NCBI GenBank assembly: GCA_051294905.1
Contig: CM119372.1
Coordinates: 35,962,001-36,026,000, forward strand
Length of the DNA stretch: 64,000 nt
Source: Botryllus schlosseri
Taxonomy: Eukaryota
Direction of reading: 5' to 3'
Shown here: positions 3,266 to 62,636 of the stretch, in pieces
Position numbering within the stretch: position 1 is the stretch's first letter
How the letters are laid out: every line of letters starts with the position of its first letter
Translations under genes and position numbers: made by a program
The notes under the pieces: model-generated
The model's input: only the letters and a program-made list of their open reading frames with translations
Told to the model about the DNA's origin: nothing
Databases searched by the model: none

Positions 3266-4426
3266 AAAGACATGGATTTGCGAATGCCAGGAAAGCGAAC
3301 ACTGAATTGCTAGGACAAGCAACTGAAACACAGCTGAAGAGAAAAAAATGGAAGCCAATCACCTTCACGATTAGGCCGAGATGGATGCTATAGATTAATA
3401 ATAATCGTGCTTGGTAGTTTTACCATTCTCTTCTCTGTTCAATATGTCGCAATGCATCTTTAGTACCGCATTGCACATTGTCTGGCTTGAGCGGAAACAA
3501 TAATTTGAGCTAAATTAGAAATAAAAGTCGGGGGTTCGCTGAGGCTCGCGACGGTCCAAAAGGGGTCCGCAAAGACATGAAAGGTTGAGAATAACTGACA
3601 AAAGGTATATGCCTTACGCTCGAAACTGACAGAGCATCTTAAAGCTGTCTTGACACAAGCAAATCAACGACCTATCAGCTCGATATATTGGGTGCGGGAA
3701 ATACTACAGAATATTTATCATGCTATAACCAATACATATATTTGATGGAGTTGTATTAAGGTAAAGCAGGGATTCTTTTTCACAATATGTATCACGAGTG
3801 TTAAACAACAAAATTTAACGATGGTATAGTGCCCTTTCGCCTTTGCCAAGAGCTAATCAGGGCCCAAATAATAGGAGTCGTCATTAAAATCGTACGATCC
3901 GCGGTGTCTACCAAGATCGCAACTAGAACTTATGTCGAGTCATCACAATGGTAGTCAGCATTTTTTATGTCGTCATTTTTTAAAACAGTGTATAAAGTCT
4001 TAAAATCCCTATATATACTGGAATGGTCTAAACTGAGTAAATCCTAAACAAAAACTATCATGTATGCAAAGCGGTGTCATTTTATACACGCGAAAAGTGG
4101 AAGAAAATCCCCCCTATTGATTGTCGACTTAATGCCACTTTTCAAAATACGGGGTTTATACAGGGGTCAAAATGTCGCCATTGTAACTCGAAATTCCTGC
4201 TACTTCATGACTTGATTTCTTTTGGAAGGGACAAATGAGGGACTAATAAGCGTGGTCCCAAACGGATTTGCTTAACAGACGATAGCAACCGAGGGAAAAA
4301 TGTCGCCAAGAATTAGGGGGACACGAAATTGTCTCCCAATTTTTTTCGTCCCCCAACTGCCACAAAAATAAGTACGATTGTCTCCCAAAGTAGCCTAATA
4401 GGTAAATATATATATATATATATATA

Positions 4427-6900
4427 TAGCAACGTACATGTTTTATAGAATATATTAGATCCAATACCTATACTAAAGCCGCAAAACGCATTGGGGCATA
4501 AATGGATAATGCGCGCAGATCGAATTACACCGAGATTTCACGCATCATTTTAAATAGCAAATAACGTAATAATGAGTTCTGTGCTCGGCTATGCAATATA
4601 GCTGAAGTCGCATAAATTCGAATGTATATGCAAGTTCTCTGTTAAGGGTAGACTATCTAGTCTCGCTTATTACTCGAATCTCGCTGTGGTTACAAATACG
4701 GCATGGTAATGCATTGGAGTTTGAAGCTAAAACATCATATTTCATGCAGTCAAGAAGACTAGCACCGCAAGCCCGGAACTAGTTACAAGCATATAATGAC
4801 AAGGCAGATTACGCAACACTAAAGGCGGGCTATTTCATTTCTTGACTATATTGAAAAATCGACAGCGTACAGCGTATAGCTATAATTTTTCGATGCAGCA
4901 ATACACTTCAGATTAACGTAGATGTTTATAGAATATATTAGATCCAATACCTATACTAAAGTCGCATAACGCATTGGAGCATAAATGGATAATGCGCGCA
5001 GATCGAATTACACCGAGATTTCCCGCATCATTTTAAATAGCAAATAACGTAATAATGAGTTCTGTGCACGGCTATAATGTTAACCGAGGATATGGTCGAA
5101 TTCGGATAAATTCGTATGTACATTAGGGCTGTTCAAAAATAACTTTTTTTTTCCCGATTCAAGCCGGTCACCTCTTAAATCGTCAGGTTGCAGTAGAAAA
5201 CCTTGCTCACCAAATTTCACTCGATTCCAACCAGTAAAGGCCTCCGCAGATCCAATTAAAATTTTTAATTTATTATGGAAAATAAAAAAAAAAAATTCCA
5301 AATTTTTCTGCCAACCCCATGAAATTGTTGAGCTGTCTTCAAAGACGTTGCAAAACAAATTTGAGTCAATTCCGACCAGTAGAAGCGGAGTTATGTGAGT
5401 TTTTCGATGATATTTCTCGGATTATCCTTGATTGGTAGATAATCCGCGATTTACATGCAAGTTCCTAGTCCCGCTTATTACTCGTTCGCGCAGTGTGGTT
5501 ACAATATTATGAATTAATTAATTAGCTAGAGCAACAGTATATATATATATATATATATATATTATTTATCACCTATATTGAAATTCGCTCATTTCATTTC
5601 AGATCAAAACGCCGGCATTGCATACGCAATTCACGCTCCGAAATTGTTACATTTCTGTCACAACTATCGCGCTATGCACTTCACCTGATGACGCAGGTGA
5701 GTTAGGCTACATTTCCGTATAGATTTGGACTAAATTTGGTTATAATTACTCCGCGCGGGTATGCACTTCGGATTTGAGATGGATGTTAGTCTATGAATTC
5801 TAGCTTTACTCACGACCTAAGGTCGGTAAATTGCAAGCTGTAGCAAGCATCTAACTACTGAGATTATGCTGATTTTACAACCCCCATAAGCCGCTGCTTT
5901 TAGATACGTAATGGAGCTGATTTAATAGCTAGTGCAGTGATGCTTTATCTTACCATTTCTGATAGTGAATAAAATATATAGCCAATATAAACCTATGCTT
6001 ATAGTACCACGAATAGCATAGCTATATAATTTATCGACTATTCTAAGATTCGCTACGCCGCCGCGGATGGAAGCTAAATTTTTCATTTCAGATCAAAACG
6101 CCGACATCGCACACGCAATTTACGCACAGAAAATTTCACATTTCTGCTATCGCGCTATGCGCTTCGACTGATGACGCAGGCGAGTTAGGCTACATTTCCG
6201 TATAGATTTGGACTAAATTTGCTTATAATTACTCCGCGCGGGTATGCACTTCGGATTTGAGATGGATGTAAGTCTATGAATTCTAGCTTTACGCTCAACT
6301 ATAGCATAGATTGTGCCCGCAAAATGCAAATTCGTATTAAGTGTAGCCTGCCTAGCTCCGCTTATTACTCGATGTTCAGTAACGCCTAATGTAAGCTGCG
6401 TTTGCTGGGGCTATAGGAACGAAGTCACTCAATACAAATTCCTGGCTCCTGCTAGATGATGATAATATGAAGCCACTAGTCCATAAGCTGCTGCTTTTAG
6501 ATGCGTGATTTAAATAGCTAGTGCACTGATGCTTTTCCGATAGTGAATAAAATCTATAACCTATGTCTATGCTATAATTTATCTCCTAAAACGCTATGCC
6601 ACTGCGGGCTATAACATTTCGGATCACTGACATCACAGACGCCGACGTTCAAGCCTAGATCGTTGTGCAGCTATATCTATATCAAAGAAGTGTGCTGAGG
6701 TCGTATCAAAGTCGCTCAACTATAGCATAGATTGTGCCAGCAAAATGCAAATTCGTATTAAGGGTAGCCTGGCTAGTCCCGCTTATTACTCGATGTTCAG
6801 TAACGCCTAATGTAAGTTGCGTTTGCTGTAGGAGCGAAGTCACTCAATACAAATTCCTGGTTCTTGCTAGATGATGGTAATATGTAGCCACTATCACCTA
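4427..6900. repeat. Mosaic of duplicated 100-220 bp modules in the Polinton left arm
   Basis: Near-identical pairs ~4430-4592/4915-5074, ~5592-5808/6081-6291, ~5885-6035/6481-6583, ~6292-6478/6713-6893. Motif CTAGTCCCGCTTATTACTCG or close variants at ~4657, 5465, 6352, 6773. Confidence 0.85.
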
Positions 6901-7015: not shown

Positions 7016-7471
7016 TTACACAATTTCATTTTCTTGCTTCAGCTCCTTGACGAAGCGTCGTACGATCGAATCATTCTTGCGGTGATCTTCCCCAAAGGAA
7101 TTTAAATAACGTTCCGTACTCCATCCGCGCGCCTTATGGACGATGAAGCTTAGACAATGATGACCGCAAGCTCTGGAACGTTTGTGCTGCAGACGCTTTA
7201 TGGAGCAGGTATAATTTTCTGGTTCTATAAAGCACGCAATCTCGTATTTCAGCGGCATTAAGCCAAAGCTATCGTGAAAATGTGTCTCATCCTCATCCGC
7301 GTAAATGCATATCCAGTGACTTCCGATTTTTCGAGCTTCGTCATAATTGATCACGATAGCATAAGGAGGAGGGGGTCGCCTCGGTAGTCGATCGATAGGA
7401 AATGTGCCAAGGAAAATATGTTTTGTTGACTCGCAGCACCACAATATTTGGTCTATTTCATCCCCGTTCAT
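7016..7471 (-). CDS. Adenain-like (C5) cysteine maturation protease
   Basis: Catalytic pattern GSHW ... FHDSFG ... LQHKRSRACGHHC; AATAAA just downstream of the stop. Confidence 0.93.
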   Translation of the reverse strand: MNGDEIDQILWCCESTKHIFLGTFPIDRLPRRPPPPYAIVINYDEARKIGSHWICIYADEDETHFHDSFGLMPLKYEIACFIEPENYTCSIKRLQHKRSRACGHHCLSFIVHKARGWSTERYLNSFGEDHRKNDSIVRRFVKELKQENEIV

Positions 7472-8731
7472 AGCACGGTCACTTTACGACTGCTACTGAT
7501 TTGCAATAGCTTTTGGAATTCCATGAAACAGAGCAAAGTAGTTTCGGCTGTTAGCCCGCCAGCAGGAAATGTGATTCGTACACTTAAGGTGCCACTCTTT
7601 TGTAAGTCAAAGCAATCATCCAAATCATCAGGGCGCAAATTATAAACCAGTAGACAGAAACCACTAGCGAACTCTTCAGGCGTTAGGAGTCCTATGTTTT
7701 TCTCCATTGCTCCCGTACCCTCAATCAGGTTATGGTAAAGCTCCGTGTAATGACCCTTATCGAAATCTAGCTCATAACCTCCCTCCGGAATCAGAAATCC
7801 GTTCAGTTTCAGTTCGAGTCGTTGCATATTATTGTGTATGAAATTATAAGGATTTTTCGTAACATCTCCTTGAAAGGCTTTCGTAGCTACCATTCCGATG
7901 ATTAGGCGAGAAGGTAGAGTCCCGCTATATAGATTCCCGATATCTATCTGCGTCGTAGCAGCCGCAAATGTTCGGGTGATCAACTTCATGTCGATATACG
8001 GATATTTCGCCTGAGCATTCACCATCATCGCTGTCTTCACATCATCGCTGACTCGTACGGTACATAACTGTAATTCCTTTTTTGTTAAGGTGAATTGGCC
8101 GGTAGCATCTCCCATCATAAAAAAGCTTTTCGGATTCAAGGTAAGCTCAAACTCGAGAGGCACGTCATGTAGGATGTAGCGGTCTTGCAGACATAGTCCG
8201 TGATGGATTTTTGCACGTATTTCCACCACGTTATCATCCTTATAGGCTTTACTCCTGTTGTAATATCCTTTGTTAGCTGAGGCGTTAGTACCACCGATCG
8301 TATCCATTTTCCCCAAAGTATCTTTTCTTCATCCTGAAGTCCTGAGTGTGGTGTTTTGCACGTCAAGCGGAGTGATAGGACGAATAACACTGTACTTTTA
8401 TATCTTGTTTCAAAGTTTCGTTAGCGACTTTAATTTGTAGTTGAGAAATCAAGGAATCCAAGATATTATTTACAACACCAACATCATCATCGGGGCCAAT
8501 TGCTTCGCCGCCTTTCTTTAATTGTAAATGAAATAAGAAATAGCTCTCGCTCAAATCGATAAAGTCTTCTGAGCCCTCAAAGCGGAATGTTATCACACTA
8601 GAGTTGTTCGAAATCGGTGCTATCTTGATGATTCTTTTCTTTTCAACGCTAGTCTGTGTCGCGGGAATGTGAAATAAATCCAATGAGGGATGTACCCCCT
8701 CTGGGGACTGTACATGAATTAACTCCGCCAT
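7468..8731 (-). pseudogene. Major capsid protein (double jelly-roll type), disrupted by a frameshift and an in-frame TGA
   Basis: ORF 8363-8731 (SLDLF..PATQTSVE, FIDLSESY) and ORF 7468-8316 (LPSRLIIGMV, NPYNF, SGTLSVRITF) are two halves of a Polinton MCP. The C-terminal frame extended upstream reads TTLRTSG*RKDTLGKMD, and the frame changes near 8400. Confidence 0.85.
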
Positions 8732-10864: not shown

Positions 10865-11194
10865 ATCCCAACCAGCGTACTAAATACTGTTCTCGTCCCG
10901 CGCGTTTACGCCTTCTTATAATCTTTTCGACACGCCAAGCTTGCGGTTCTTTTACGCGTTGGAGCTCCTCTCTATAAAATCTACCCTGGATGACTTCACC
11001 ACCGTAATCACGTAAGCCAGGGGTCGGCAACCTTTTGTTAGTCGCGGGCCAAACTTCGGGTGTTCAACCTTTTGGCGGGCCGGATTTTTTCTTTGTACTA
11101 TATTTTACGCTCACTTCGGTATATTATCCTACATTGCTGCAATCTCAATCATACCAACCCGAAGAGACATGTATTTACACTTCAACGACACAGA

Positions 11195-11620
11195 ATAATT
11201 GTGACAATTGCCGCAGCTTGCTTTGTGAAAGGTTTTCAACTTCTGGTAACAAGTCAGATGAAACAAGAATCAGACCCTATTCAAAATGGACGTCCGAAAT
11301 ACGTGATCTTAGCTTGCTCTTCGTGAATTTCATTGTTCAAAACTTTTGTTCACATGCGTACGTGCTTCCAAAAATCGATGCAATTTCTTTTGCATTGCTG
11401 GTCAAGCTGGGATAAAGACCAATTTCAAGAAAGTACTCTTTGTCAAAGTCATGCAGCGATATGCTCTTTGTATGAAATTTGTCATTCAATTCAACTGCAT
11501 CGCATTTTAGAAACGCCCATTTTCAGGCAATGGTATTGGCGTCCACATTAAACGGAGTACTGAATAGTCCGAATTAATTTTGTAGAGAAGGAATGTCGGA
11601 AAAGCGGGTGAATATTCAGT
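11195..11620 (-). pseudogene. Remnant of hAT transposase C-terminal dimerization region
   Basis: Manual minus-strand translation gives LFSTPFNVD and IASIFGSTYACEQKF*TMKFTKSKLRSRISDVHFE*, with stops. Confidence 0.8.
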
Positions 11621-12340
11621 AGTTAAACTTCGTATCACAGTTACAAATGTAATGTTGGTACTAGGTTTTCTCTCCTCCAGTATAGGAAACTGAGCATGAT
11701 TTTCTTTTTACTGTTGACATTTCAAGAGTCACAGATTTGTTTTGAATGCGCCTCAACATCTCATGTATGTAGTTGTTTTCCCCCTGAAGTTGCAAGTTCA
11801 ATTTGTTCAGATGTGACGTTAAATGTACCAGGAAAGCAAGATGAGATACCCATTTTCGATTACAAGATTACGAGTCGGCGATGTTTGTATTTTCGAGGAA
11901 AGTTGCTATTTCATTTCTCAGTTCATACACTCGTGTAAGCATAGCTTCTCGACTCAATGAGCGAACATGACAGATATAGGCCTACATGACATAGCCATAT
12001 TGATTCTCTGCTTCTAGTAATATCTGGCGTAACTGATTCAGTTGATGAGGCAAAAATCATATTAACAGTTATCCCCATTGTGGCCAAAACACTATTCAGG
12101 CACACAATGGCACACAATGCCTTCTGGAAAATCAAACCATAGACAGGCTAACTAACATACGGAGGCTAGTTATCTATAATCGAATAGTTTGAGATTCCGT
12201 CATTGCGTCTGAGATGCTCCAAGCGTTTTTGAAGCAAAGGAAGAACACCTTTATTGTCACACCCCGTTAGAGTGATTAGCGCTTTAAAAAAGCATGGAAC
12301 ACCTTCGGTTGCGACATACACCCGATTGATAAGTCTATAG

Positions 12341-13554
12341 CAGTGTTGCCAACTCCGGATGGAAGAAAATCGCTAAAACTGGTGTCAAAAATCGCTAGAT
12401 AGCGCTAAATATTGAGAAAAAAGCGCTAAAAAATAGCGCTAAATCTGCAAAAGGTGCTAAAGGTGTTAAATTGAACCATTATATCGATATATTCTTCTCA
12501 GCTATATTTTACTCGTCTGGGGCCAAAGTCACTTATCATACGTAATAGTCATATCTAAGCGTGACAAAACGGCAGTGCATTTCGATAAAGCAGATCGCTT
12601 TGCGCAACGATCGCTATACTGTGAACACTGACCAGGTTTGCAGGCATAACCGCTCACTATATCAGCGTGCCTTACTCGATGCGTCCGTGAATACGTGATG
12701 CGATGTACCGTGGTTATGCGCTTGACTTCTTCTCTAAACTGTGTTGGAGTTGGCCTACTTGATCACGACATGCGACTTGACACACGTGGACACGACATGC
12801 GACTTGACCCGTCACAATACGACGTTGAAACGGGTTTGTTTTCCACTATAAGTAGAGACCTTAAGAAAATAATCCGAGGACCAACCCGGTGTATGAAATG
12901 TAATTAATCTGGCCTTAAACGAATGACCAGACATTGGAGCGACCTCAAAACAGTCCCCAAAGTCTGGAAATCGGCATTGATAAGAACAATCGCTGGACGA
13001 AATTGGTCATTGTTATGTTCATTGTGTTGCGGCGGTGCCATTGTTGGAGCAATAATGCCGGTTTTCAGACTTTGAGGGCTGTTTCGGGGTGCATGGTTCC
13101 ATTGTCCGGACCAGATTTTATTTCGTATTTTCGAAATCACTGCGACACTATCTTTCGATTATGGCCATTGGCCAATTATATTAAACTTCAGCGTTCAGGT
13201 CGCCAGTTTTAGCACTGCCAACTATGCTACTTTTAGATTACTCAGCAAGAAGAGACACTGTTTGCCAATGCGTAACCGCCAGGAGTTGCGTATCTACTAC
13301 TATCTATCGGCAGGTAGTAATCTATAATCATATTTCATCGGAGTCCGCACTCTAGTGATCGGTATAGCCAATGCAGTCGTCAGCCAGAACTGATCTTTAG
13401 TGGTTATTTTCGGTAAAAAAGCGCTAAATAATCGCTAAATACTTCTTCAAAAATCGCTAGATTTATCGCTAGGCGCTAGATCCATATTTTTTGGCGCTAA
13501 ACCGGATGAAAAATCGCTAGATCTAGCGCGAAAATCGCTAAATTGGCAACACTG
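12341..13554. mobile_element. Non-autonomous hAT-like element nested in the 11018-13806 element
   Basis: TIRs CAGTGTTGCCAA / TTGGCAACACTG; many AAATCGCTA subterminal repeats at both ends; imperfect TSD GTCTATAG / GCTCTATAG. Confidence 0.82.
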
Positions 13555-14600
13555 GCTCTATAGTCTATCTCCATATCCTACTTCAACCACCTTCGTTTTA
13601 TGGCGTAACAATAGACTAATACGATGTAGGCTACTATTATATCGTAGCAATGCCGCATTTTTTTCATGCAGCGCTGTACTGCAGATTGAAACTCATTATG
13701 AAGCGGCGGGCCGTATTCTTGTGATAACTAATTATTATGTCGCGGGCCGGACGATTTCGCTTGGCGGGCCGGATCCGGCCCGCGGGCCGTAGGTTGCCGA
13801 CCCTTGACGTAAGCGATACATTGGGGGATCCCCCTTTTGGGCGTCTGCGATATAGAAAATTTCCCGTTGCCAGTTGGGTAGGCTGCTTTTCTCAAAAAGA
13901 TTTCGAATTTTCGATATACGGACGGGTAATCCTATAGCGAGGTCGGGTTGTTTAGCTTCTTGAAATCCGTAAAGTCTTCTCCAAACCGATTCCTGATTAG
14001 ACGAATTCACTTGGTTTGGGGCCATGGCAATGCTACGATGGTACGTCCTGTTGTAGGAGTAAGTAAAGTCATCGAGAGCGCTCACGTAATTCCTCGTGTT
14101 ATTTTTTGTGAAAAATCGATACATAATCGCCTTCATAGTACGAATCACCCTTTCGACGACAGAGGATTTTAATTCGCTCCTCGTATAGAAATATCTAACT
14201 TTGTTCTCCTTTAGATAGTTCTGGAAAGCGCGATTGGTATATTCGCTACCTTGATCGGTTTGTAACACTAACGGTACGCGTTCACGAAACACACGTTTGA
14301 AAGCAGAAATCATACTTGAAGCAGTTTTATTTTTAATCGCTATCATCCAAAGGTATTTGCTAAAAATATCAATCACCACCACCACAAAACGAAAACCGCT
14401 ATTGTACTTTGAAATAGATTGCAGATCCATCAAATCGCTCTGAAACTGAGCATTGATACCGGAGACCACTACACGTTCACGCCTAAATTTCTTACGTAAC
14501 GGAAAATGAAAAGTATAAGTATCTTGTCCTTTAAGCCATTCTTTTTCCTTTTGCAAATAAGCGCCCCTATACGATTTGGGCTGTTTCGGATCAAAATAGT

Positions 14601-14939
14601 CTACGTCTCCCATTCTTTCCCGTATATACGGGGATTAGGCTTACGCTGTCTCTTATAAAGCCAGGGAAACGAAGGTTGTGGAATCCGGCGCGGGCGTTTC
14701 TTTTGCGGGCGCTTTTCTTTCGCTACGGGGCTCGCGAGCCCCGTGTGTGCGGCGGGAGGGCGGGCGGTCGCTGCGTCTACGTCTTTTCTCAAGTTTCTCA
14801 GTTGAGCAATACCATGCCTATACAGAGCTAGTTTCTCGGAAGCATGTAATGGAGAGCTTTTAATTTTCGATATATGTTTATCAAATTTCTTTTCCCATTC
14901 GTCCTTGCTTCGAAATGCGGGGAATTGTAGTTCACGCAT
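14601..14939 (-). CDS. Polinton protein of unknown function, basic C-terminus
   Basis: Co-oriented ORF overlapping both neighbours; FDKHISKI..LHASEKLALY resembles a recurring Polinton N-terminal motif. Confidence 0.55.
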   Translation of the reverse strand: MRELQFPAFRSKDEWEKKFDKHISKIKSSPLHASEKLALYRHGIAQLRNLRKDVDAATARPPAAHTGLASPVAKEKRPQKKRPRRIPQPSFPWLYKRQRKPNPRIYGKEWET

Positions 14940-15340
14940 TCTTCCCGAAAAGTTTACCCAACAGACTCCCGATGACGGGGATTGCAGCGCCTAATATAGC
15001 TAAAAACAGACCGGTTAGAAAAAAGTTTCTATTTTATCATAATTTTTATACCTGAGAGGAATCCACCCTTTTGTAGCACCCTCCGTTGACCTCTGCGAGT
15101 TTTTTGCGCCAGCAATTGTCTGATATCGGATTTGTGTTTTCCAAGCCTCAACTTTCTAGACGGGGAGATACGTACTGTCCCCGAAGCCAAGTTATGAACG
15201 CACTGGCAGACGCAACTTAAAAATTGATTGTTCGATAAAAGTTCTTTTCGCTGTTTCCCTTTAGCGTTTTTCAAAAGTTTTAATTTAACGTGATAGTCGC
15301 TCAATCGTTTTCGAGATATGTTACTTCCCCTCTTCGACAT
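14932..15340 (-). CDS. Adenovirus pX-like basic core protein, two exons (15052-15340, 14932-14999), 118 aa
   Basis: 52-nt GT..AG intron 15051-15000 with CTAAC branch-like motif; splicing gives QKGG-FLSAILGAAIPVIGSLLGKLFGKNA*. Confidence 0.8.
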
Positions 15341-15375
15341 GTTGAATGCCCTAAAATCTGCAGCGCGAGCTGTAT

Positions 15376-15993
15376 TTATTCTTGATATACCGTCAACTTT
15401 TGGTGTGGGAATATTTTGCTGCGGAGACGATAATTTTCGTCTGTCTCTTGCGTCAAGTCAACTAGTATGTACGAGAACGGTTTTCGAGTTGCCTTTTTAT
15501 AAGCCTCCGTAAGGAATCCGGCTTTATCGGGGAACATTTGACGTGAAAGAAAACTGATTTGACTCGCATCACGGGGATTTTTAAATATCACGATATAGCT
15601 CGCGCTCAGGGTCATATCCCGAAAGCCTTGACCCCTATAGAACAAATTTTGACATATGAACACCACGCTGATCTTTGCGTGATGACTGTATCGAGTGAAT
15701 AGATCTCTGGCCTCTTTCGCTTCCGTCATCATGTCGTCGATCACCAAGAGAACGTGCCTATTTCCTTTCTGTAACTTTTTGAGCTCGGAGAGCCCTTGCG
15801 AGAATTCTACCCCTTTCATTTTATCGTACAACTCCTGATAATTATTATACAACCATACAATTTTTTCAGGAGCCGGTCTAATCATCTTCTCTGCGTTCTT
15901 CACCAACTCATAAGTAAAATAACTCTTCCCGCTACTGCTCGGACCAGCTACGATCATCCGAAACGGAGCATGCAATGTACGTATTCGATCCAT
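15376..15993 (-). CDS. A32/FtsK-HerA-like DNA packaging ATPase
   Basis: Walker A GPSSSGKS, Walker B LLVIDD, SHHAKISVVFICQN, FKNPRD. Confidence 0.95.
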   Translation of the reverse strand: MDRIRTLHAPFRMIVAGPSSSGKSYFTYELVKNAEKMIRPAPEKIVWLYNNYQELYDKMKGVEFSQGLSELKKLQKGNRHVLLVIDDMMTEAKEARDLFTRYSHHAKISVVFICQNLFYRGQGFRDMTLSASYIVIFKNPRDASQISFLSRQMFPDKAGFLTEAYKKATRKPFSYILVDLTQETDENYRLRSKIFPHQKLTVYQE

Positions 15994-15996
15994 TTA

Positions 15997-18900
15997 TTAC
16001 AGAGATAAAGGCAATGTATGAATTCCATCATTAAGCACAATCCTTTTATAATAACCATAACTCAATGCACTTCGATATTGCTTATACGTAAACATATCGC
16101 CCCCATAGCAACGAAAACCGCTATTGACGCCACCCGTGATCGATCTATTTTGAAGAATGCCTTTGAAATCTTTGAAAGTTTTGTTGGCCGTTTTTTGAAG
16201 CCCTTTCGAGCTGTACTTATCGCTGTCGCCTTTGCAATAATAGGTCTTGGAATTGAGGCCTATAAACCCATCTCCGATCCATTCTTCTTTGAATAAGCCC
16301 GGTATACGTTTCGAGTAATTGCGAACCTCAATGCAGCAAGCTTTATCAGTTTTAAAACCAACGGGAACTCGTTCAAAATCGCATTTATGCTCTCCACATG
16401 CGCGAGCCACGAACCATTTGTCGTGATTTTCAAAAAATTGTTTTTTCATGGAAGGCTTGATGAGAGAATAGATCGTATCGGAGCTTAAGCTTATGTACGC
16501 CGAATCAGTATCTGTTTCGAGGAAAGCCCAATCGCTATCGTCCAAATACACATGCAGACAGTCATATAGGAACTCGAGCATTCTCAGCTTGGCACAACAG
16601 AATATAAAGAAGCCCACAATGACTGGGTTTTCGTGACAAATGTTAAGGGGACGCGTAGCTACTTCGAGCAAGCCTTCATCGCTCTTATCAATTTCAACAG
16701 CATCGACAAAAAATTTTTTTTCAACGCGCGATGGTAATTCTTCCAATTTAACGTATTCGTGTTCCCTATATTTATTAGGGTTTTGAATAGTACGACCAAA
16801 AGCACTATTTCCAATCGTCTTCCAGGTCAACGCTTCCATTTCACGGGCCGGATCTTTTGGGAGGACATCGCCTTTGCGACGCTCAGAGGATACCCGCTCA
16901 ACGAAGGGTGTGAAAACTTGTTTTGGTTCATATTCGACAGCTTGGAATACGCGAGTCACGATCATGCCGCTTTTCAAGTACCACTGAAGCAAATCCGTAT
17001 TAAACAACTGTTTTTTCGTGAAATAACTAGAGCCCAGAAATTTTTTTGGAAACTTAATATTGTTTTCCTTGGCGTATTCACGCATATGTTCACCGATATC
17101 GCACTCGTTTACTTCCATATGTTTGAAAAAAAGAGGTAACTCTTCGAATTTCGATTTTAAATGGTCGGGACAATGAATGTCACACTCGATTGCACCGAAA
17201 AATGACCCGTCGAGCGTGCGCTTGAGCAACTGCGCCTCAGTGAGATAATAAGCTTTCGTGACTTTACGCTCGAACTTTGAGGCAAATTGCGCAATTTCAG
17301 GGTCTCGTTTCATATTCGTCCAAACGCACTCCTTCATACGGATAACGGTATATCCCAATTTTTCCAAATATTCCGTGTTTTGTTTGGTGAGTTCACGCCT
17401 TTCGGTGTTCTCTTTATCAGGGAAGCAGCTCCTACAAGCGTGGTAATAGCACCCATCGTACTGAAAGATGAGTTTACCGGCGTTCCCGTCGACAAATAGG
17501 CGTTTATTTCCGATTCTCACTTGACTACCGTTCCACGCGTGTTGAATTTTGATGTCACGAACGTGACTTTCGTATTCCAACCATTCGCGCTCCGCATGAG
17601 TAGGCCAAACGCGCTGTTTATGGAATTTTTGCTTTTCCTCATCATAAATCCACCTTATAGGGTAACCCGTTGGCATATTTTGATTTATGCACCCCAAATA
17701 GAGGGCATTGGCGTCGTATCCTACTACTTTCTTGACGGTTTTAGCACTGTCACCGTAGCGAAGACTGCGTATTTTCGTTTCACCCGCCATAGCGTACCGT
17801 GACGTAATCTGTGATAAACCTCCTACCAAGTTGTTCAGAATCGTTTCGTGAAGGTCAGCATTGGCCTTATTCAGAAGAGTGATATCGCAGCAATCACGAA
17901 ACATTAGTCTACTCGCTATATTCGGAAGGCTCACGTTACCCTTGAACATATCGATGCCAAGCGTTTTGTAAAATTCGAAATTGTTATTCAGCGCGGTCAG
18001 GAAGCCAATGACGTCACCTTCGTTGTAATATCGGAGAAAATCACGGAATGTGGTCATACCCTCGCGTTCCCATACAGCGACGCATTCTGCGTATTGCTCT
18101 TCCGTTATATTCGAATTGCGGAACGCGTTGTAAAACGATTCATGGGTCGGTAGCGACGTTTCATCAAGACGCTCGATGCTATCGAGATATTCGTAAGGGA
18201 AATAAAATTTTGCGTTTACCCCATCCCCGTATAGCTTCATGTACGCATCCAAACTATAACCCGGACTCGGGAATAGCGAAATATCCAGAAATTTTAATCT
18301 GTGCGTTGCGATTGTCAAATAGGCGCTGTTCCTTTTCAAAACGAAGAATCCGCTTTCCTTGTGCAAGGATTTGATTAGATATTTCTTGCATAAATTCAGA
18401 TCATAGCGCGAGGAATTGAAACCGATTATGGGTATCTGATCAAGCCACGTATGGAGTCGAAGCGAGATATTATCCAAATAGGATCTCCTATTAGTGGGAT
18501 CGATCAATTTCCGTTCTTCAATCAAATTCTCAAGTTCGATTATTTCGCTAGCGAAAGATTCTCGCATTTCGGTTGAGGCGAGTTCTTGTACGCGATAAAT
18601 TTCCCCAATCATTTCATCGATTAACGTCTGCGGGCAACCCTCGGATATGAAAGTTTTTGTTTCATTCGTTACGTTATTCGATAAGGACACAGAGACGGGA
18701 ACATGCCGATTAACGTATTCTACTTTTGCAGAATTAGCTCTGAGCTCATCCTTCACGAGCATGGATTCAAAGTCAAAACACATACGGTACGGGAAGAATC
18801 TCTTTTGGTTCTCAACGAAAATGCCTTCGGATTCCAATTGCTCGAATACGGTGGGTTTAGGACGATATACGCCGCTGGCATAATTCCGAGTCTGGGACGT

Positions 18901-19875
18901 TTTGCATTCACGTTTTAGATGCTTTGTCAGATTTGGCTTGGTTTTAAAGAAAAACTTGCATGATTCACAAAAGAATGTCTGGGAATAGAGTTCAATATTT
19001 GTGATCAAGCATGAATGAGAACGTTCCATGTGTATATGAACCACTGGGCCATCCGCTTCAGACTGTCGCAATAAAAATGGTTGATGATCGCGTTTTTCAT
19101 AAACAAGTATCTTTACGTGAAAACATTCCTCAACTTTATTCAGTTCATCGAGCGGTACACCATCATCTATAGGGATACGGTAACGTTCACGAAATTGAGA
19201 GGCCAATAGTGCGACGTGCTTCTCATCTCGTTTTTTCTTGATGAATTGGGATAAGCAACGGAAGAGGCATAGCGAATCGTTCAGTTGTGTTCCGTCCTGA
19301 TGTCGAACAAACGTTCTAATATACCGACAGTTTGATAGTTCCTTAGATATCGATGCACTAGGGCAGCCCAGTAAAACTCGCGGCATTTCGTACAAGAAAA
19401 ATTGAATATGTAATATTGCAACGCAATAAAACTTGGTGTCTGGTCTGGCTTGTCTGGCTTGCTCGTAAGCAGCTGATAAATCGATTTCGTTGATGAAACG
19501 ATCAAAGTCCTCACGTGAAAGTATAGGTGTCGGTAGATCCAAAACAGCATGGGTTGATTGCGGATGAAAATAGCTACGTCTTTCCGTCTCTCGATTATAA
19601 AGCAGGAAACCATAAGCATAGTTAGCTTTGAATTGTCGCAATCTTCTCGGGTATATCGATGACATGCGCGCATGAATATCATTTATACCTCTCCCGATCA
19701 GGCGTACATTGATCGCCTCTCTCGCCCCTCTCGCAACCCTCCTGCTGTTAAGCCACTCGGAATCGATAATCGAGTTGGAGTGCGATTGCATAAGCTCTGT
19801 TGCGTCGTTATTAAAACCGAGCGAATCATCGATGATGAAGCTAGCATCTTCTTCGTAGCGTCTTCGACGAGCCAT
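15997..19875 (-). CDS. Protein-primed family B DNA polymerase (pPolB), 1292 aa, uninterrupted
   Basis: Exo I CFDFES, Exo II FNSSRYD, Exo III YNEGDV, Pol A YDANALY, Pol B KTIGNSAFG, Pol C ETDTDS, SKTY, SSKG. N-terminal CLFRCL..HSCLI, a Cys/His finger and an internal VSR-like nuclease insert (QYDGCYYHAC). Confidence 0.97.
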   Translation of the reverse strand: MARRRRYEEDASFIIDDSLGFNNDATELMQSHSNSIIDSEWLNSRRVARGAREAINVRLIGRGINDIHARMSSIYPRRLRQFKANYAYGFLLYNRETERRSYFHPQSTHAVLDLPTPILSREDFDRFINEIDLSAAYEQARQARPDTKFYCVAILHIQFFLYEMPRVLLGCPSASISKELSNCRYIRTFVRHQDGTQLNDSLCLFRCLSQFIKKKRDEKHVALLASQFRERYRIPIDDGVPLDELNKVEECFHVKILVYEKRDHQPFLLRQSEADGPVVHIHMERSHSCLITNIELYSQTFFCESCKFFFKTKPNLTKHLKRECKTSQTRNYASGVYRPKPTVFEQLESEGIFVENQKRFFPYRMCFDFESMLVKDELRANSAKVEYVNRHVPVSVSLSNNVTNETKTFISEGCPQTLIDEMIGEIYRVQELASTEMRESFASEIIELENLIEERKLIDPTNRRSYLDNISLRLHTWLDQIPIIGFNSSRYDLNLCKKYLIKSLHKESGFFVLKRNSAYLTIATHRLKFLDISLFPSPGYSLDAYMKLYGDGVNAKFYFPYEYLDSIERLDETSLPTHESFYNAFRNSNITEEQYAECVAVWEREGMTTFRDFLRYYNEGDVIGFLTALNNNFEFYKTLGIDMFKGNVSLPNIASRLMFRDCCDITLLNKANADLHETILNNLVGGLSQITSRYAMAGETKIRSLRYGDSAKTVKKVVGYDANALYLGCINQNMPTGYPIRWIYDEEKQKFHKQRVWPTHAEREWLEYESHVRDIKIQHAWNGSQVRIGNKRLFVDGNAGKLIFQYDGCYYHACRSCFPDKENTERRELTKQNTEYLEKLGYTVIRMKECVWTNMKRDPEIAQFASKFERKVTKAYYLTEAQLLKRTLDGSFFGAIECDIHCPDHLKSKFEELPLFFKHMEVNECDIGEHMREYAKENNIKFPKKFLGSSYFTKKQLFNTDLLQWYLKSGMIVTRVFQAVEYEPKQVFTPFVERVSSERRKGDVLPKDPAREMEALTWKTIGNSAFGRTIQNPNKYREHEYVKLEELPSRVEKKFFVDAVEIDKSDEGLLEVATRPLNICHENPVIVGFFIFCCAKLRMLEFLYDCLHVYLDDSDWAFLETDTDSAYISLSSDTIYSLIKPSMKKQFFENHDKWFVARACGEHKCDFERVPVGFKTDKACCIEVRNYSKRIPGLFKEEWIGDGFIGLNSKTYYCKGDSDKYSSKGLQKTANKTFKDFKGILQNRSITGGVNSGFRCYGGDMFTYKQYRSALSYGYYKRIVLNDGIHTLPLSL

Positions 19876-19908
19876 ATAGTTTTAAGTATATTCTGTAAAA
19901 ATAGACAT

Positions 19909-20244
19909 TCACAAATTTATTCCATATTTCAAACGCAATTTACACTTGAAAGCTTCATAAAGGAACAGGAATTTGATATTTTCTAAGGTACGCAGTTCAT
20001 CGGCGTTGGGGGTAAATTTATCGATGTCTTTAAGCACATTTTTTGCTATAACGAGAAAATCTTTTTGCCATTCCCCATATCCTTCCAGTGAGACCATTTT
20101 TCGCCAAGTGGCAACTCTCTTGATATCATCGTCAACGAAACCTTCAAAGGTAGCGGTCGTAGCATCTCGCGTACGTCTTGTGTCTCCCGCACCGTATTGT
20201 TGTAACAACATATTTAGATCTTTACCACAATTATAAGGTTCCAT
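19909..20244 (-). CDS. Hypothetical Polinton protein (~111 aa, likely start ATG 20244)
   Basis: Fills the gap between the 413-aa ORF and pPolB; ATG preceded by TTGTTTTCTCAG; AATAAA overlaps its final codons. Confidence 0.6.
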   Translation of the reverse strand: MEPYNCGKDLNMLLQQYGAGDTRRTRDATTATFEGFVDDDIKRVATWRKMVSLEGYGEWQKDFLVIAKNVLKDIDKFTPNADELRTLENIKFLFLYEAFKCKLRLKYGINL

Positions 20245-20263
20245 ATTAATCTGAGAAAACAAA

Positions 20264-21505
20264 TCAAATATACCAGTCATTGTACTGTCGTTTGAGCTCA
20301 TCGAATTTGGCGTAAAATTCACGTGCATGCACATCGTTTTCAACATAAGAGGAATCGCTCTCAAATTCGGAATCTGACGGTATGAATGTACGACCAAATA
20401 TATCATGTATAATTTTACGGCGAGCATGCTTATTCATCTCAGGCAAGTAGCAAGGATAACACTGATTACCGAAGCGAATAATCACTGTGCTGGATTGAAA
20501 CATCCCTCCCAAATTGCGTAACATAACATCACTACCATTCTGAATTTCGGATACGAGCCAAAACGATGACGGCTTTACTCGTCCGTAAGCAGACTGCAAA
20601 GGACTGCGATGAATGTACATAATGGCTTCCTGCAACATCTTGTTATCGAAAAATAGAGACCCGCAATTGCGCATCACTGAAATAGATTTCTCGGTATTGT
20701 GAAATTTGAACGCCTCTAGATTCGGATGGAAAGGATCTAGGAAGTTGGCGATATCGTCAGAGAACAACAAATCGATCAACACTTCTTTTCCGGTCTGATT
20801 TTTGCCTTCTATAAAGAAGTGAGGCGCAAAATATTTCTTATGCATATGACCCTCCATTAGAGTGATAATGAACACAGCACGGAGAAAATTAGGGCTCCGT
20901 TTTCGATCAACGAACAACACCTCCTCGATATTCTGCTCCAGAGAACGGAAAAATAGTACACCATCATCAATCGTAAGTAGAGGGTAATCCAAATTATAAA
21001 TCAGACCATCAAACTTTTCCTCGTCCAATACGTTATTAGCGATACGACGTCGCTTATTGCGAAAAGGGGACGAACAAACTCTCCATGGGGTGATGATCGG
21101 TGAGTGAGGTGGGCTTTGAGCACTCGTCACAGCTGTCGAGTTATCAGTACTCTGTGGAGGCGTAAATTCAGCACCAACTGGTAGTATGCTCTTATCGAAG
21201 TCGAGTCTGCGCTTAGATTTAGGTTCACTTGGTCCCATCACCGGTCGTGGTATACCGATATTGATTGGAGTCATCACGTCAGCTAAGGGAGCCTCATCAG
21301 ATTGCGCCACTGCCTCATCAATAATTGTTACGTCATCATCACTAACTCCCGCCTCTTTACTCTTTTCAGCTGCAATCGTAACTTCGATCAATTCTGCATC
21401 GACATCGGAATCGAAATCACCAATCGGTAATGTATCTGCTTGATTATCAGGAATCATAGTTGTTGATTCGCTAACTACGTCGCTTGCTTTCTCCATTGTC
21501 GACAT
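20264..21505 (-). CDS. Orphan 413-aa protein: acidic N-terminus, RxL cyclin-docking motif, S/T-P cluster, NLS-like patch
   Basis: Long ORF with TATATAA ~40 nt upstream; contains KSKRRLDF, TPPQS, SPPHSPIITPWR, SPFRNKRRR. Confidence 0.8.
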   Translation of the reverse strand: MSTMEKASDVVSESTTMIPDNQADTLPIGDFDSDVDAELIEVTIAAEKSKEAGVSDDDVTIIDEAVAQSDEAPLADVMTPINIGIPRPVMGPSEPKSKRRLDFDKSILPVGAEFTPPQSTDNSTAVTSAQSPPHSPIITPWRVCSSPFRNKRRRIANNVLDEEKFDGLIYNLDYPLLTIDDGVLFFRSLEQNIEEVLFVDRKRSPNFLRAVFIITLMEGHMHKKYFAPHFFIEGKNQTGKEVLIDLLFSDDIANFLDPFHPNLEAFKFHNTEKSISVMRNCGSLFFDNKMLQEAIMYIHRSPLQSAYGRVKPSSFWLVSEIQNGSDVMLRNLGGMFQSSTVIIRFGNQCYPCYLPEMNKHARRKIIHDIFGRTFIPSDSEFESDSSYVENDVHAREFYAKFDELKRQYNDWYI

Positions 21506-21809
21506 CCTTTTTGCAGTATAGTTTAGTTCGTATTCGAGCCTCTCTTATATAGTGAACTACATGCGCTTTGCACGCGGAGAGCGCGTGATTGTATTCGTGG
21601 CATTCTTACTAGCATTCTAATTAATGACAATACGTACCAGGAACGGATATGAGGTACGTGTCTTTTTCTGTGAGCAGTCGACGTTCTAATTTCCATGATA
21701 CGACCTCGGGGCCTATCATTCGATCGGTACCAAGCACATTTTCGATGGTGCATAGCTCAATATCTATATAAAGCATACTGATCATGAGAGTATATCAATT
21801 TGGATAGCA
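21506..21809. promoter_or_regulatory. Divergent promoter region with two outward-facing TATA boxes
   Basis: TATATAA on minus strand at 21545-21551 and TATATAAA on plus strand at 21765-21772, each ~40 nt upstream of an ATG. Confidence 0.65.
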
Positions 21810-22391
21810 ATGTCGAACATTAATCAAAGCGATTCGCTACCTAGCCGTAGTGTGGATCCTACGAATTATGCTGCATTAAACTGCGCTTGCATCGGTACCA
21901 CAAGTAGCATAGATATAAGCGAAGATGAAACTCGGACGGGTCCCATTGAACAGTACCAAGCTATGATAAATAACAGAGGAGAAAAGATTTATGAATGCTA
22001 TGCGAAGCATAGAGATGTAACTGTCTCCCCGTTGAATGATCCCGTTTTCTATAACATGGTACGCTATGCTCGTAGACTAAGCACATTTATGCGGTGGCCG
22101 GATAATATCAATACCTCTGGAACCGAGCTCGCAGACTGCGGATTGTTCTATTTGGGCTATAAGGATCATTTAAAGTGTTTCTCGTGTGGCGGGCTGTTTC
22201 AAAATTGGTTGCCGTGCGATGACCCCTGGCTCGAGCATGCAAAGTTTTATCCTACGTGTCCTTTTCTCATAAAGCGTAAGGGGTTGCAATATATTCGTAA
22301 TGTCTGTTATGCGACACCTAATATAAGAAGAGGCTCGACTAAATTTGATGGCGAGGTGGAATTGCGTGATGACTGTTGTACTTATGTTTGA
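21810..22391 (+). CDS. Single-BIR inhibitor-of-apoptosis-like protein, no RING
   Basis: RRLSTFMRWP..ELADCGLFY..DHLKCFSCGG..WLPCDDPWLEHAKFYPTCPFL with complete CxxC..H..C zinc ligands. Confidence 0.92.
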   Translation: MSNINQSDSLPSRSVDPTNYAALNCACIGTTSSIDISEDETRTGPIEQYQAMINNRGEKIYECYAKHRDVTVSPLNDPVFYNMVRYARRLSTFMRWPDNINTSGTELADCGLFYLGYKDHLKCFSCGGLFQNWLPCDDPWLEHAKFYPTCPFLIKRKGLQYIRNVCYATPNIRRGSTKFDGEVELRDDCCTYV

Positions 22392-22407
22392 TATTTCTTT
22401 TCAAAGA

Positions 22408-22890
22408 ATGAGTCTAGCAATCCGTGGAGATACTATTCTGCCCCAAGGGCCCTATAGAAAAGACTTGTATCTTTTTAATGACATCACAAAATTACGTATC
22501 GAAGCTTCGAATGGAGCAGAATTGACCTCGGATCAACTCTTTGTACATTCCACAAACGGGACCATTCAGAAATATCGAGCCACTCTGAAGCATGAAGGAG
22601 GTCTGGTCGTTACGTATACTCGCGACGGAATCGAGCATTATCAACCTCTGAATCCGGCTGACGAATTCGTCATCTATTCGCCCAGCGTAGTTGTTCCTAA
22701 TCCCGACCTTCCGCTCGTATCGTATATACTACAAGCCAGTGATCGCTACATCAAACAGAACGGTCAGATCGAACGCAAGAACTCGGATCGCAACGTCGGA
22801 TGGCAGCAAAGCAGTGTACCTCGAAACATCAACCGATCCGGAGGATTTCAGCACGCGAATCGGCGCAATAGCGATCAGCGATATCATTGA
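22408..22890 (+). CDS. Hypothetical Polinton protein (160 aa from ATG 22408)
   Basis: ORF follows the BIR gene; TTTCTTTTCAAAG before the ATG; AATAAA ~17 nt after the stop. Confidence 0.6.
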   Translation: MSLAIRGDTILPQGPYRKDLYLFNDITKLRIEASNGAELTSDQLFVHSTNGTIQKYRATLKHEGGLVVTYTRDGIEHYQPLNPADEFVIYSPSVVVPNPDLPLVSYILQASDRYIKQNGQIERKNSDRNVGWQQSSVPRNINRSGGFQHANRRNSDQRYH

Positions 22891-23159
22891 TATGCTCTTT
22901 TTTCGAAATAAAATCGTACACTATACAATGCTATTTCAATGAGACCGAGTAAAAGTTAGGAGACATGAAAAGGGTCGTATGAAATGCGGTGACTACAGGG
23001 TTCGAACCTAGAACCTAGAGCAAGATAGCTGACTGATTCCTCTGTGATGACGTTATGAAATTTAGTTCAACGATTAGTGTAGCGAGAATTCTTATTCTCA
23101 AAAAACAGCTTAATACACATAATCATGATTATGTGCCAATGGGCGTTATATAGCTGAGG

Positions 23160-23332
23160 CGCTTGATGATGTGCCACAGATGACGTAGCAGATGATGTGG
23201 CAATAGATGATGTGGCAATAGGTGTGCTATAGGTGCGGTAATGGGCGGATGATGTGACAATGTAGGCGTGGCAATTAAGGCGACGTGGCGAAATTTGATT
23301 GGCCTGCAATAAAAGTAGATACCCTCACTACT
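23160..23332. repeat. Polinton right terminal region with GATGATGTGGCA-like short repeats
   Basis: About seven degenerate copies between ~23165 and 23290, then ..CCCTCACTACT terminus. Confidence 0.75.
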
Positions 23333-23707
23333 CATGCTGTAGTTTGTTCATTGTTTTATGACATTGATGATATAATGTAAGGTTTTATAAGCCGAAGCAA
23401 TCTGCTATCATTTGCTCCTGTCTGAAACTATGATACGTAGCCCACTGACCCGGACGGACAGACCATAGTGATTCTTTAAACTTAATGCCAGTAATGGTAG
23501 TAGTTGGTTTGTCAACAAGGGATGCAATGAATGTATCTTGTCACACCGATTTTGTGATGCCTACTTTTACTTGCGATTCTGACGTTATTCAGAGGACCAA
23601 GGCGTGTCTTGTAATGGAATGTGATCATTTTTCATCAAGAGTAGATACGAATGCCACCCGATGGCCTTCCAAATAGTAGTACCTCTTTATAAAGTGTCTT
23701 TTTTCAG

Positions 23708-34003: not shown

Positions 34004-36191
34004 CCCTAGACTGCTCAGGTGGATTATCGTTCCACGATCGCTCTGGTGGGGTCGATTAGACCCCATAAGTTAATATGCTTTTTTCTTACCAATTTCGCTA
34101 TACAGCTGTCTAATAACCTCTTGCATGACGTTATAACGATGCATCTTTCCTTTTTGAACCCTACTGTCTACCCATTGTAAAGTTCCGGCTGAGGCGTAAC
34201 GCCAATACGCAAATGGCGATATGGGGTCAAACCCCCCATCAATTAATTATAATAACAAAGAAATAACAACAAGACAAGACAATACAATACAACAATGCAA
34301 CAAAGTAACAACGACAACAACAAAGTAGATTCAATCCGAATCATCCGGCTCCATGCACTCTTGACATGTCACTATTTTCACAGAGTATGTTTGGCAGACA
34401 AATTCCCCACATTTTCCACTTTTTTTCTGATGTTTTCCGGTCTTATGCTCTACCGCAAAGACAGCATCTGCCACGTGCAGCTTTGGAGAGCTTTGCTGGT
34501 GGAATTGTACTGTCTTCTCCCGGAAAAATTCTTTTAGACGCGATTTTGTGCGGACGCGTAAGTGAGTATTTTTTTCTTCGCCTGGACACTGCATTTTTCT
34601 TTGTTAGGGTCAGTGCAATTTCCATTGCAAATCCTTTGTGTGTTTGTTTCTTCGCGCGGTTACATTTAGCCAGCGAAGATAATATATAGCCGTTGCATGC
34701 AGACAAGTTCATCAATCCAAAGAAGATCGTCAGAGGCCAGTGCTTACTATTGCGAGAACAGGAATAGTTTGCCACCATTCTGTCTGCCACGTCGACGCCA
34801 CCTTTTGTTTGATTATAAAATGTTATTATATCTGATTTCCAAGCGTCACCAGAGCTTTCATCAATTTTATCATCGTGATGCTGGCTACTCACCATGGTAA
34901 GAATTTTCTTTGAGCCTTTGCCCTTTGAAGATATGACAGCAGTGTCATATATTTTTGAAATCCAAAAATGCTGCTGTACACCTCCCTCCCCGCAGAGAAA
35001 TGAACGCAGGAGGTATCTCTCTCTTGTTCTTTCAAAGGGTGCCAACTGCCGTCAGTTTATGGTCGTGAAGCAATGATGTCATCAAGGGTATACTGGTGTA
35101 CCAGTTATCGAATGTGATGTTTCGGCCAGATCCTGATATATCAGACACCAGCCGTGTCATTTCTTCTTTGGCCGAGTTGTCGACTTTGTACGGCCAGTCC
35201 AGTTACATCCCGCAATAAATTTCAAAATTGTAGGTGTAGCAAGTCTTTGCATCACACAGGGCATGTAGTTTGATGCCATATTTTGCCGGTTCGTTTCGAA
35301 TAACTGTCGGAAAGAACACCGTCCTCGAAACCCCCAAAGCATTTCGTCAATGGTCACAAATTCAGACAACACGTAATTTCTCTTGAAGGTGTTCAATATC
35401 ATATCCGATATTGTTCGAATTATCGCAAATTTGTCATTTTTTCTATCTTCGCGTGTGGTAATGTCATCAAGCCGAAGACATCGCAAAGTGAATCGGAATC
35501 TTTCGCATGACATTGTTACCTTGAAGATATCAAAACTCATCAATTGACTATCATGAGCTTTATGAACCCCAGCCAGAAGAAGAAGACCAATGACAGCTTC
35601 CATCTCCACCGAATTACTTGACCCTACCCTGCACTTCTCTTTGTAGTTTTGGGCTTCTTCAGGTGTCTTCTTGTTTGTAAATTCAACAAGTAAATCTATC
35701 ACTTGTGGTGTGAAGAAGAGCTTCCAATAATCAATGCAGTTATCAGCTTCTAGTGCGGGCCCAGTGAGACCCGGTGAAAACTTTATCATATTCGCTGCAC
35801 TTCGACTGGCAGTCGGAGCAGTCTTTCTCCAAAACGTGGTACCGTCTTTTCCTAACCACCCATCACTGCCAGCTTCACCTTCTTCAGGATTTTCTTGATC
35901 ATCTCGTAGACTGCAAGTGACAGAACCAATGCCAAGCAGCAACTAAAAGTCACAATGAGGAGATAATTACTTAGTCTGCCCACTATACTTGCAAAATCAG
36001 ACCTATGCGCAATCAATAGCTCATTGCGGCGAGGTATTAGCGATAATCAGCTAATGCTTTATTCCGAATGATAGTGTATAACACCATTGAGGATTACATG
36101 TCTGGTAATAACAATCCGACCGCACAAAAAAATATGGCTCACATTTTTGTTCGCCTGGGGTCTTTTTGACCCCAACCTGAGCAGTCTAGGG
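34004..36191 (-). mobile_element. piggyBac DNA transposon, defective
   Basis: 17-bp TIRs CCCTAGACTGCTCAGGT / ACCTGAGCAGTCTAGGG flanked by TTAA at 34000-34003 and 36192-36195. Confidence 0.95.
34331..35942 (-). pseudogene. piggyBac transposase, frameshifted
   Basis: Fragments TIDEMLWGFRGRCSFRQ, FYNQTKGGVDVADRM, HWPLTIFF and a Cys-rich C-terminus spread across several frames. Confidence 0.92.
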
Positions 36192-62554: not shown

Positions 62555-62636
62555 CTGTAAAAAGTCCGACAATTATTAGATGTGCTGCTAAAACAAAAAA
62601 GCGGATACATTAAAACTGATTTGACGTACTGCCAGA

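Follow-up and report, generated by a model that had tools for sequence, protein, structure and literature searches.

Trans-splicing of a spliced leader (SL) is documented in Ciona and Oikopleura. According to the account of Satou et al. (2006; PMC1488885), operons in Ciona mostly lack intercistronic DNA and place the poly(A) site of the upstream gene at the trans-splice AG of the downstream gene, with no AATAAA in 16/18 cases. The same source describes SL addition at acceptors that have no partner donor. Trans-splicing has also been described as preferring the first functional acceptor and as being favoured by weak donors (PMC11155486). For adintoviruses and Polintons, the passages on transcripts in PMC8502044 mention these as abundance in fish tissues alone. 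A literature search that did not cover supplements turned up no account of Polinton genes being spliced or using an SL, nor a Polinton transcript map, for elements that would express a dozen tightly packed genes through host RNA polymerase II. In this study, we analyzed a Polinton/Maverick element, present as one copy in a 64-kb window (the whole stretch of DNA under study, G000:C2:35962001-36026000) of a 495-Mb genome. Three genes of this element are preceded by a T-rich or pyrimidine tract closed by an AG. From their sequence and conservation, we tentatively favour reading the three sites as conserved, unpaired 3' splice acceptors within two TATA-led transcription units, most likely serving SL trans-splicing.

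The three sites lie between an open reading frame (ORF) of 413 amino acids (aa) and a 111-aa ORF (J1), between the 111-aa ORF and the gene for protein-primed DNA polymerase B, pPolB (J2), and, on the other strand, between a gene with an inhibitor-of-apoptosis repeat (BIR) and a 160-aa ORF (J3). A preliminary description of this DNA had reported at each place a stop codon, a pyrimidine tract with AG and an ATG in succession, and the arrangement was confirmed base by base (Table 1). The spacers from stop to ATG measure 19, 33 and 16 nucleotides (nt) at J1, J2 and J3, respectively, and the ORF limits are consistent with the junction coordinates. J1 and J2 combine a T-rich tract with CAG; J3 has a tract followed by AAG.

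To express how often such sites occur, a strict acceptor-like criterion was defined as an AG following 11 nt of which no fewer than 8 are pyrimidines and no fewer than 6 are T, a post hoc definition since it was set once the sites had been seen. The background space of 28,510 nt comprised both element strands, with a 2.8-kb insertion removed. It contained 71 strict sites, and 12 of its 499 ATG triplets (2.4%) had such a site at most 20 nt upstream, compared with 3/3 junction ATGs; under a looser criterion, the background rose to 28/499 (5.6%). Among the strict sites on the coding strand, 5/23 had an ORF start, of about 15 in all, no more than 20 nt away. These five are J1, J2, J3, a TAG 15 nt before a 240-aa ORF and, ahead of the capsid ORF, a poor GAG; no acceptor-like site was found at the remaining gene starts of the element. 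The acceptor-like observation is real and non-random.

Relatives of the element are numerous in this genome. At least 36 pPolB matches were found, with protein identities of 93-97% (about 23, the window copy not counted), 77-79% (two), 72% (one) and 61-62% (eight), and a DNA search with the junction region recovered 28 close copies with the window's own included, two copies at 81% and four at 73-74%. Below, L011 and L012 constitute the 75%-DNA lineage, L013, L058 and L059 the 72-74% lineage, and L014 to L021 the 61% family. No relatives of the element were found among viral contigs.

Conservation of the AG sites in sister Polintons had been proposed in the preliminary description as a check, and the AG is indeed retained at all three junctions in the close copies and in the 75%, 72-74% and 61% families. 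The CAG of J1 and J2 is present in 28/28 close copies, 17 of the 18 motif columns of the two sites are invariant among them (9/9 at J1), and J3 is identical in 10/10 close copies; these counts are not independent because the copies are related. The sole varying motif column is position -4 of J2, with G in 25 copies, A in two and C in one, and all 28 copies show the pattern TTTTT.CAG. Position -4 is unconstrained in 3' splice sites. By comparison, 10 of the 34 other spacer positions vary in the same alignment, as do 45 of the 111 third codon positions of the 111-aa ORF, so that the motif columns show a purifying pattern.

The motif also extends to the divergent lineages. At J1, TTTT(C/T)TCAG is retained in L011, L013, L058 and L059, thus in both the 75% and the 72-74% lineages. 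In these two lineages, J2 retains TTTTCAG despite indels of 2-30 nt between the stop and the tract, and J3 retains a tract with AAG (TTTTTCTTTTCCAAG in L011, TTTATTTTTCAAG in L013). The 61% family has TTTTGTTTGCAG at J1, 9 nt before the homologous ATG, TGTTTTACAG at J2, 9 nt before the ATG and with the motif present twice, and TTAATTTAG at J3, 7 nt before the ATG. Its spacers measure 160, 180 and 80 nt, compared with 16-33 nt in the window, and the motif still stands beside each ATG. The motif at these three gene starts recurs in families whose pPolB is just 61-79% identical to that of the window. The spacer between the large and the small ORF in the 61% family (L014-L021) also shows a tandem duplication of a unit of about 55 nt holding ATTTGCAT, tract and ATG; the first of these units has CAC instead of CAG in 7/7 copies that hold the spacer.

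TATATAA was found solely before the first gene of each unit, and the three junction genes lack it. Across four lineages, TATAWAW stands 41-51 nt upstream of 7/8 first-gene starts and within 90 nt upstream of 2/12 downstream-gene starts; the 28,510 nt of background contain 14 occurrences. This split between TATA boxes and acceptor-like sites fits two putative divergent units, each headed by a conserved TATA box. As for poly(A) signals, an AATAAA follows the 160-aa ORF (22907-22912), and none follows the BIR gene or the 413-aa ORF. No AATAAA was found ahead of J1 or J3. The AATAAA ahead of J2 (Table 1) is present in 28/28 close copies and missing in L011 and L013.

As a comparison of copies shows, the element carries real short introns, which the host spliceosome processes. 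The intron of a small minus-strand gene (Table 1) has lengths of 50, 51, 52 or 54 nt among nine further close copies, and its GT, branch site and AG are retained there. The 75% and 61% families have it at 54 nt with a differing sequence, and the peptide encoded by exon 2 is conserved across three families. The spliced product would have 118 aa and a conserved hydrophobic tail, with a stop that overlaps the next ORF start by 8 nt. A second intron (GTATGT, TACTAAT, TATAG) is located in the homologue that the 61% family has of the 160-aa gene (L016:4253-4312); it measures 60 nt, or 61 nt in two copies. It was detected in 7/7 gene-carrying copies of that family and is precisely missing in the window family. 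Sister Polinton families therefore differ in whether this gene has an intron. Since the length of the first intron shifts by non-multiples of 3, which would break a coding sequence, the RNA of the element is evidently spliced. Host introns inferred from myosin genes (n=7) include four of 58-68 nt, and 7/7 end in CAG.

We then looked for donors that might pair with the three acceptors. No strong GTRAGT donor was found between the promoters and the acceptors of J1 and J2. Weak donor-like sites in the 413-aa ORF are GTGATT (21420) and GTTAGT (21346), and the plus-strand unit has just GTAAGG (22276) before J3. A 72-nt intron ending at J1 (donor GTGAAT) was rejected, the donor being lost in L011 (GCGAAT). 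For J3, the preliminary description had offered the alternative of a 51-nt cis intron (22356-22406) extending the BIR protein. Its donor GTGGAA is replaced by GATTCGG in L011 and GAAACAA in L013, the acceptor being kept, and this alternative was abandoned, as the GT is absent in both divergent lineages examined. Splicing of 22356-22406 would merely exchange the last 11 BIR codons for 16 others. Three lineages retain a GTAAAT 51 nt ahead of J2, in Cys-Lys codons; the corresponding 51-nt intron was not adopted, as its splicing would lead to an immediate stop.

The host appears to be an ascidian, as suggested by a NACHT-domain exon of the window (61047-62609) with 17 matches, of which the 3/3 named ones come from Styela clava (32-40% identity). 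In the reading that we favour, the two TATA boxes within the 304 nt that separate 21505 from 21810 would each start one unit. Leftwards, RNA polymerase II would transcribe the 413-aa ORF, the 111-aa ORF and pPolB, and rightwards the BIR gene and the 160-aa ORF. The host SL would be joined at 20250, 19892 and 22407. Each downstream gene would then obtain its own capped mRNA with a leader of 1-17 nt, and the upstream message would end at or close to the same AG, with a 3' untranslated region (UTR) of 13-16 nt. SL addition seems the most likely use of these acceptors because no conserved partner donor is nearby and the host is apparently an ascidian. The steps we infer are transcription across the junctions, use of the AGs and a spliced leader as the joined piece. 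On a broader scale, a Polinton family in an ascidian could have fitted its expression to host SL trans-splicing, with two TATA-led operons resolved at acceptors 13-16 nt past the stops, a proposal that we regard as a serious possibility short of probable. The preliminary description had claimed two polycistronic transcripts resolved by splicing. At the sequence level, the claim is supported in part, by the two-unit TATA layout, the conserved acceptor-like sites, the real introns and an apparently ascidian host with a Ciona precedent; the tight pPolB-ATPase pair, which lacks the motif, does not agree with it.

Several observations weigh against the use of the three sites as SL acceptors. The AAG of J3 makes a poor acceptor. 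The genes for pPolB and the ATPase are 3 nt apart with no AG, and two further gene pairs are ATGA overlaps without the motif; the acceptor mechanism therefore cannot serve the entire element. Over all lineages, 14/29 junction instances pass the strict criterion, and the failures, short by one pyrimidine (counted by eye), include J2 of L013 as well as J1 and J3 of the 61% family, which passes at J2 alone. Two downstream genes do have a TATA box, a TATATAT in both cases: pPolB of L013, at -41, and the 61%-family small ORF, at -60. In the window copy, a TATAAAA is located inside pPolB before the ATPase gene (Table 1), a TATATAT stands 48 nt before the capsid ORF, and a weak ATAAAT lies 45 nt before the pPolB ATG, a spacing equal to that of the first genes. 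The element therefore appears to put promoters inside upstream genes, and the argument of the preliminary description that promoters have no room is unsafe. The J1 and J2 acceptors of the 61% family could be the ends of ordinary 5'-UTR introns, as suggested by donor-like GTATAT and GTAAGC located 51 and about 58 nt before them, with CTAAT branch sites (by eye).

Neither RNA reads nor the search for a leader gene lent support to the favoured reading. Three RNA runs (X22, X24 and X19) and a contig set (X1) were mapped on 13800-23400 at 90% likeness. The share used of each run was between about 6 and 12 in 100, with about 6 in 100 for X22 and X24, two bulk runs labelled with the same species. X22 and X24 gave a depth below 1 over the element and its junctions, except at 22467-23108, where the reads continue into unlike sequence, and X19 gave zero. 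No joint or loose end was listed in these three runs at 20250, 19892 or 22407, at a depth below 1 from which no verdict follows. A spliced-leader gene was sought by means of the Ciona leader, and none was found: the leader followed by GT, with at most 2 mismatches, gave 55 matches against 37 for the control. Recurring leader-like variants were discarded as one dispersed repeat with long shared flanks, and the leader pattern with a guessed Sm-like site had no match.

Three other explanations were weighed. It is somewhat unlikely, although it deserves attention, that the sites are not splice sites at all and that TATA-less or weak-TATA promoters reside in the upstream gene ends, with tract and CAG acting as a start-site element, a short-leader element or translation context. 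The TATA boxes inside coding sequence before the ATPase gene and the capsid ORF point in this direction, together with the ATAAAT before pPolB, the TATATAT boxes of L013 and of the 61%-family small ORF, and the duplicated unit with ATTTGCAT in the spacer of that family. The CA inside the motif could moreover act as an initiator. Yet no TATAWAW lies within 90 nt of J1 or J3 in the four lineages, apart from the box at -60 of the 61%-family small ORF, the TATATTT at J1 is just 20 nt from the CAG, and conservation of tract and AG with position -4 left free speaks more for a 3' splice site than for an initiator. Alternative cis-splicing, in which a short leader exon right after each TATA start site would supply the donor for the same AGs and one leader would be placed ahead of each downstream ORF, seems improbable to us. 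The first 200 nt of either unit hold no strong donor, and Ciona is described as trans-splicing first acceptors that are unpaired or weakly paired (PMC1488885, PMC11155486), although such splicing has a precedent in the RNA-seq data reported for an adomavirus, where acceptors right before the LO4-LO7 ATGs are heavily used, together with a three-exon leader (bioRxiv 10.1101/341131). Real cis introns in the element, and the donor-like sites and branch sites before J1 and J2 of the 61% family, would also be in line with it.

An absence of any function, where T-rich spacers after stops in an AT-rich element contain AG by chance and share it by descent, is the explanation to which we give very little credit. 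It draws on the post hoc criterion, on the relatedness of the copies, on the strict failures at J1 and J3 of the 61% family and at J2 of L013, and on the AAG of J3. It is at odds with motif columns that vary far less than synonymous sites and other spacer positions, with a motif that stays with the ATG when spacers expand tenfold in the 61% family, and with the low share of background ATG triplets that have such a site under either criterion. The reading as SL acceptors remains the one that we prefer.

The gene content of the element and the coordinates of its features are given in Table 1. Further minus-strand content consists of small ORFs and of capsid-like ORFs located farther left than the integrase gene, with a double-jelly-roll (DJR)-like capsid domain under the Pfam cut-off (E 0.0062). 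No direct Pfam match was obtained for pPolB; 42 relatives were found, many with a precomputed PF03175. The 413-aa ORF has no Pfam match either. Its look-alikes in a language-model comparison are Parvo_NS1 / PPV_E1_C (SF3 helicase) clusters, with a score of 0.90 and 167 shared features, below the 170 mark, and its GKNQTGKE stretch could be a degenerate Walker A motif; an SF3-type helicase is possible and serves here as a lead. The 111-aa ORF behaves as a real gene on comparative grounds: in its 28 copies, 45/111 third codon positions vary, compared with 28/222 first and second positions, and it shares 41% identity (E 2e-22) with a 136-aa ORF of the 61% family. The 160-aa ORF shares 46% identity (E 4e-43) with a 194-aa ORF of the same family.

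Table 1. Genes, junctions and putative signals of the Polinton/Maverick copy (positions within the window).
Feature	Coordinates	Strand	Description
413-aa ORF	20264..21505	-	First gene of minus-strand unit
111-aa ORF	19909..20244	-	Second gene of minus-strand unit
pPolB, protein-primed DNA polymerase B, 1292 aa	15997..19875	-	Third gene of minus-strand unit
A32-type ATPase	15993-15376	-	Pox_A32, E 1.7e-8, above cut-off
rve integrase	14613-13735	-	PF00665, E 3.3e-13
BIR (inhibitor-of-apoptosis repeat) gene	21810..22391	+	First gene of plus-strand unit; PF00653, E 1.2e-18
160-aa ORF	22408..22890	+	Second gene of plus-strand unit
J1	TGA 20266-20264, TTTGTTTTCTCAG 20263-20251, ATTAAT 20250-20245, ATG 20244	-	Exon would begin at 20250
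J2	TGA 19911-19909, ATGTCTATTTTTACAG 19908-19893, 17 nt 19892-19876, pPolB ATG 19875	-	Exon would begin at 19892
J3	TGA 22389-22391, TATTTCTTTTCAAAG 22392-22406, A 22407, ATG 22408	+	Weaker candidate acceptor
Spliceosomal intron, 52 nt	15000..15051	-	In small gene 15340-14932; GTATAA .. TTCTAAC .. TGTTTTTAG
TATATAA, putative promoter of minus-strand unit	21545..21551	-	46 nt before ATG of 413-aa ORF; 42-51 nt in L011 and L013
TATATAA, putative promoter of plus-strand unit	21765..21771	+	45 nt before BIR ATG; in all four lineages examined
TATAAAA, candidate internal promoter	16044..16050	-	Inside pPolB coding region, 57 nt before ATPase ATG (15993)
AATAAA	19916..19921	-	Last codons of 111-aa ORF, 22 nt before J2 AG

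The right end of the element was placed at about 23335, where homology with nine close copies stops (23332-23339). No inverted partner of this right end was found in the window, and the left end is a tandem-repeat tract; the missing terminal inverted repeats may reflect decay of the window copy. The left flank (4400-6900) contains tandem repeats and (TA)n tracts, and other copies have an array with a period of about 713 nt there. The window copy is decayed. The 2.8-kb insertion (11018-13806) interrupts the 3' end of its integrase gene and is not found in three other copies. Its capsid ORF (7468-8731) is split in two, compared with a single 425-aa ORF in three copies without the insertion. Elsewhere in the window, two minus-strand ORFs at 34443-35942 resemble a piggyBac-type transposase by eye. 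An Rfam scan of the whole window gave zero matches. A scan for bacterial promoters and terminators, irrelevant in this setting, found 12 against 10.7 expected and was set aside.

The RNA data sets showed further features of the element region. The X1 contigs cover all 30 bins evenly, promoter region included, and look like DNA. They skip 849 nt (15976-16826) and 1824 nt (16906-18731) in pPolB, with GT..AG ends on the plus, non-coding strand; these skips are probably internally deleted DNA copies. In two of the runs, reads pile up at 22657-22950 and nowhere else, to a depth of 9-33. Their likeness is 90-95%, and on either side they continue into sequence that differs. A first look across the genome gave 279 candidates for this stretch, compared with 35 for the junction region. 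The pile-up seems to stem from a diverged, expressed relative of the 160-aa gene's 3' part.

Should the favoured reading be true, reliance on SL trans-splicing in a chordate would be shown for a virus-like DNA element for the first time. Use of the acceptors would mean that a mobile virus-like genome borrows a lineage-specific form of host RNA processing, the ascidian-type resolution of operons, and would tie its host range to trans-splicing hosts. The element would also lend itself, as a compact example from nature, to testing which features turn an acceptor into a trans-splice site. Whichever reading holds, the comparison of copies at the two short introns shows that the host spliceosome processes these elements.

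The element as a whole resembles Polintons, Mavericks and adintoviruses as described in PMC8502044, in its pPolB, rve integrase and A32-type ATPase, its weak double-jelly-roll match and its many copies in an animal genome. With adomavirus late ORFs and the adenovirus tripartite leader it shares acceptors, here candidate ones, right before ATGs and a compact linear double-stranded DNA genome with ties to the Polinton-adenovirus group (bioRxiv 10.1101/341131). In the adomavirus case, however, that account reports a shared multi-exon leader that provides the donor, as seen by RNA-seq, whereas no leader donor was found here, where the evidence is the DNA itself. Caenorhabditis SL1-type operons, as summarized in PMC1488885, are comparable in having no intercistronic spacer and, at J2, an AATAAA about 22 nt before the acceptor; they differ in belonging to another phylum with another leader, and the AATAAA is lost in the 75% and 72-74% families. 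The closest likeness is to the SL operons of Ciona (PMC1488885): closely packed genes of the same strand, with spacers below 100 nt and a single promoter in front, an AG at the start of the downstream gene and an upstream AATAAA that is mostly missing. Unlike those operons, which consist of host genes, the units described here, with upstream 3' UTRs of just 13-16 nt, would belong to a mobile virus-like element.

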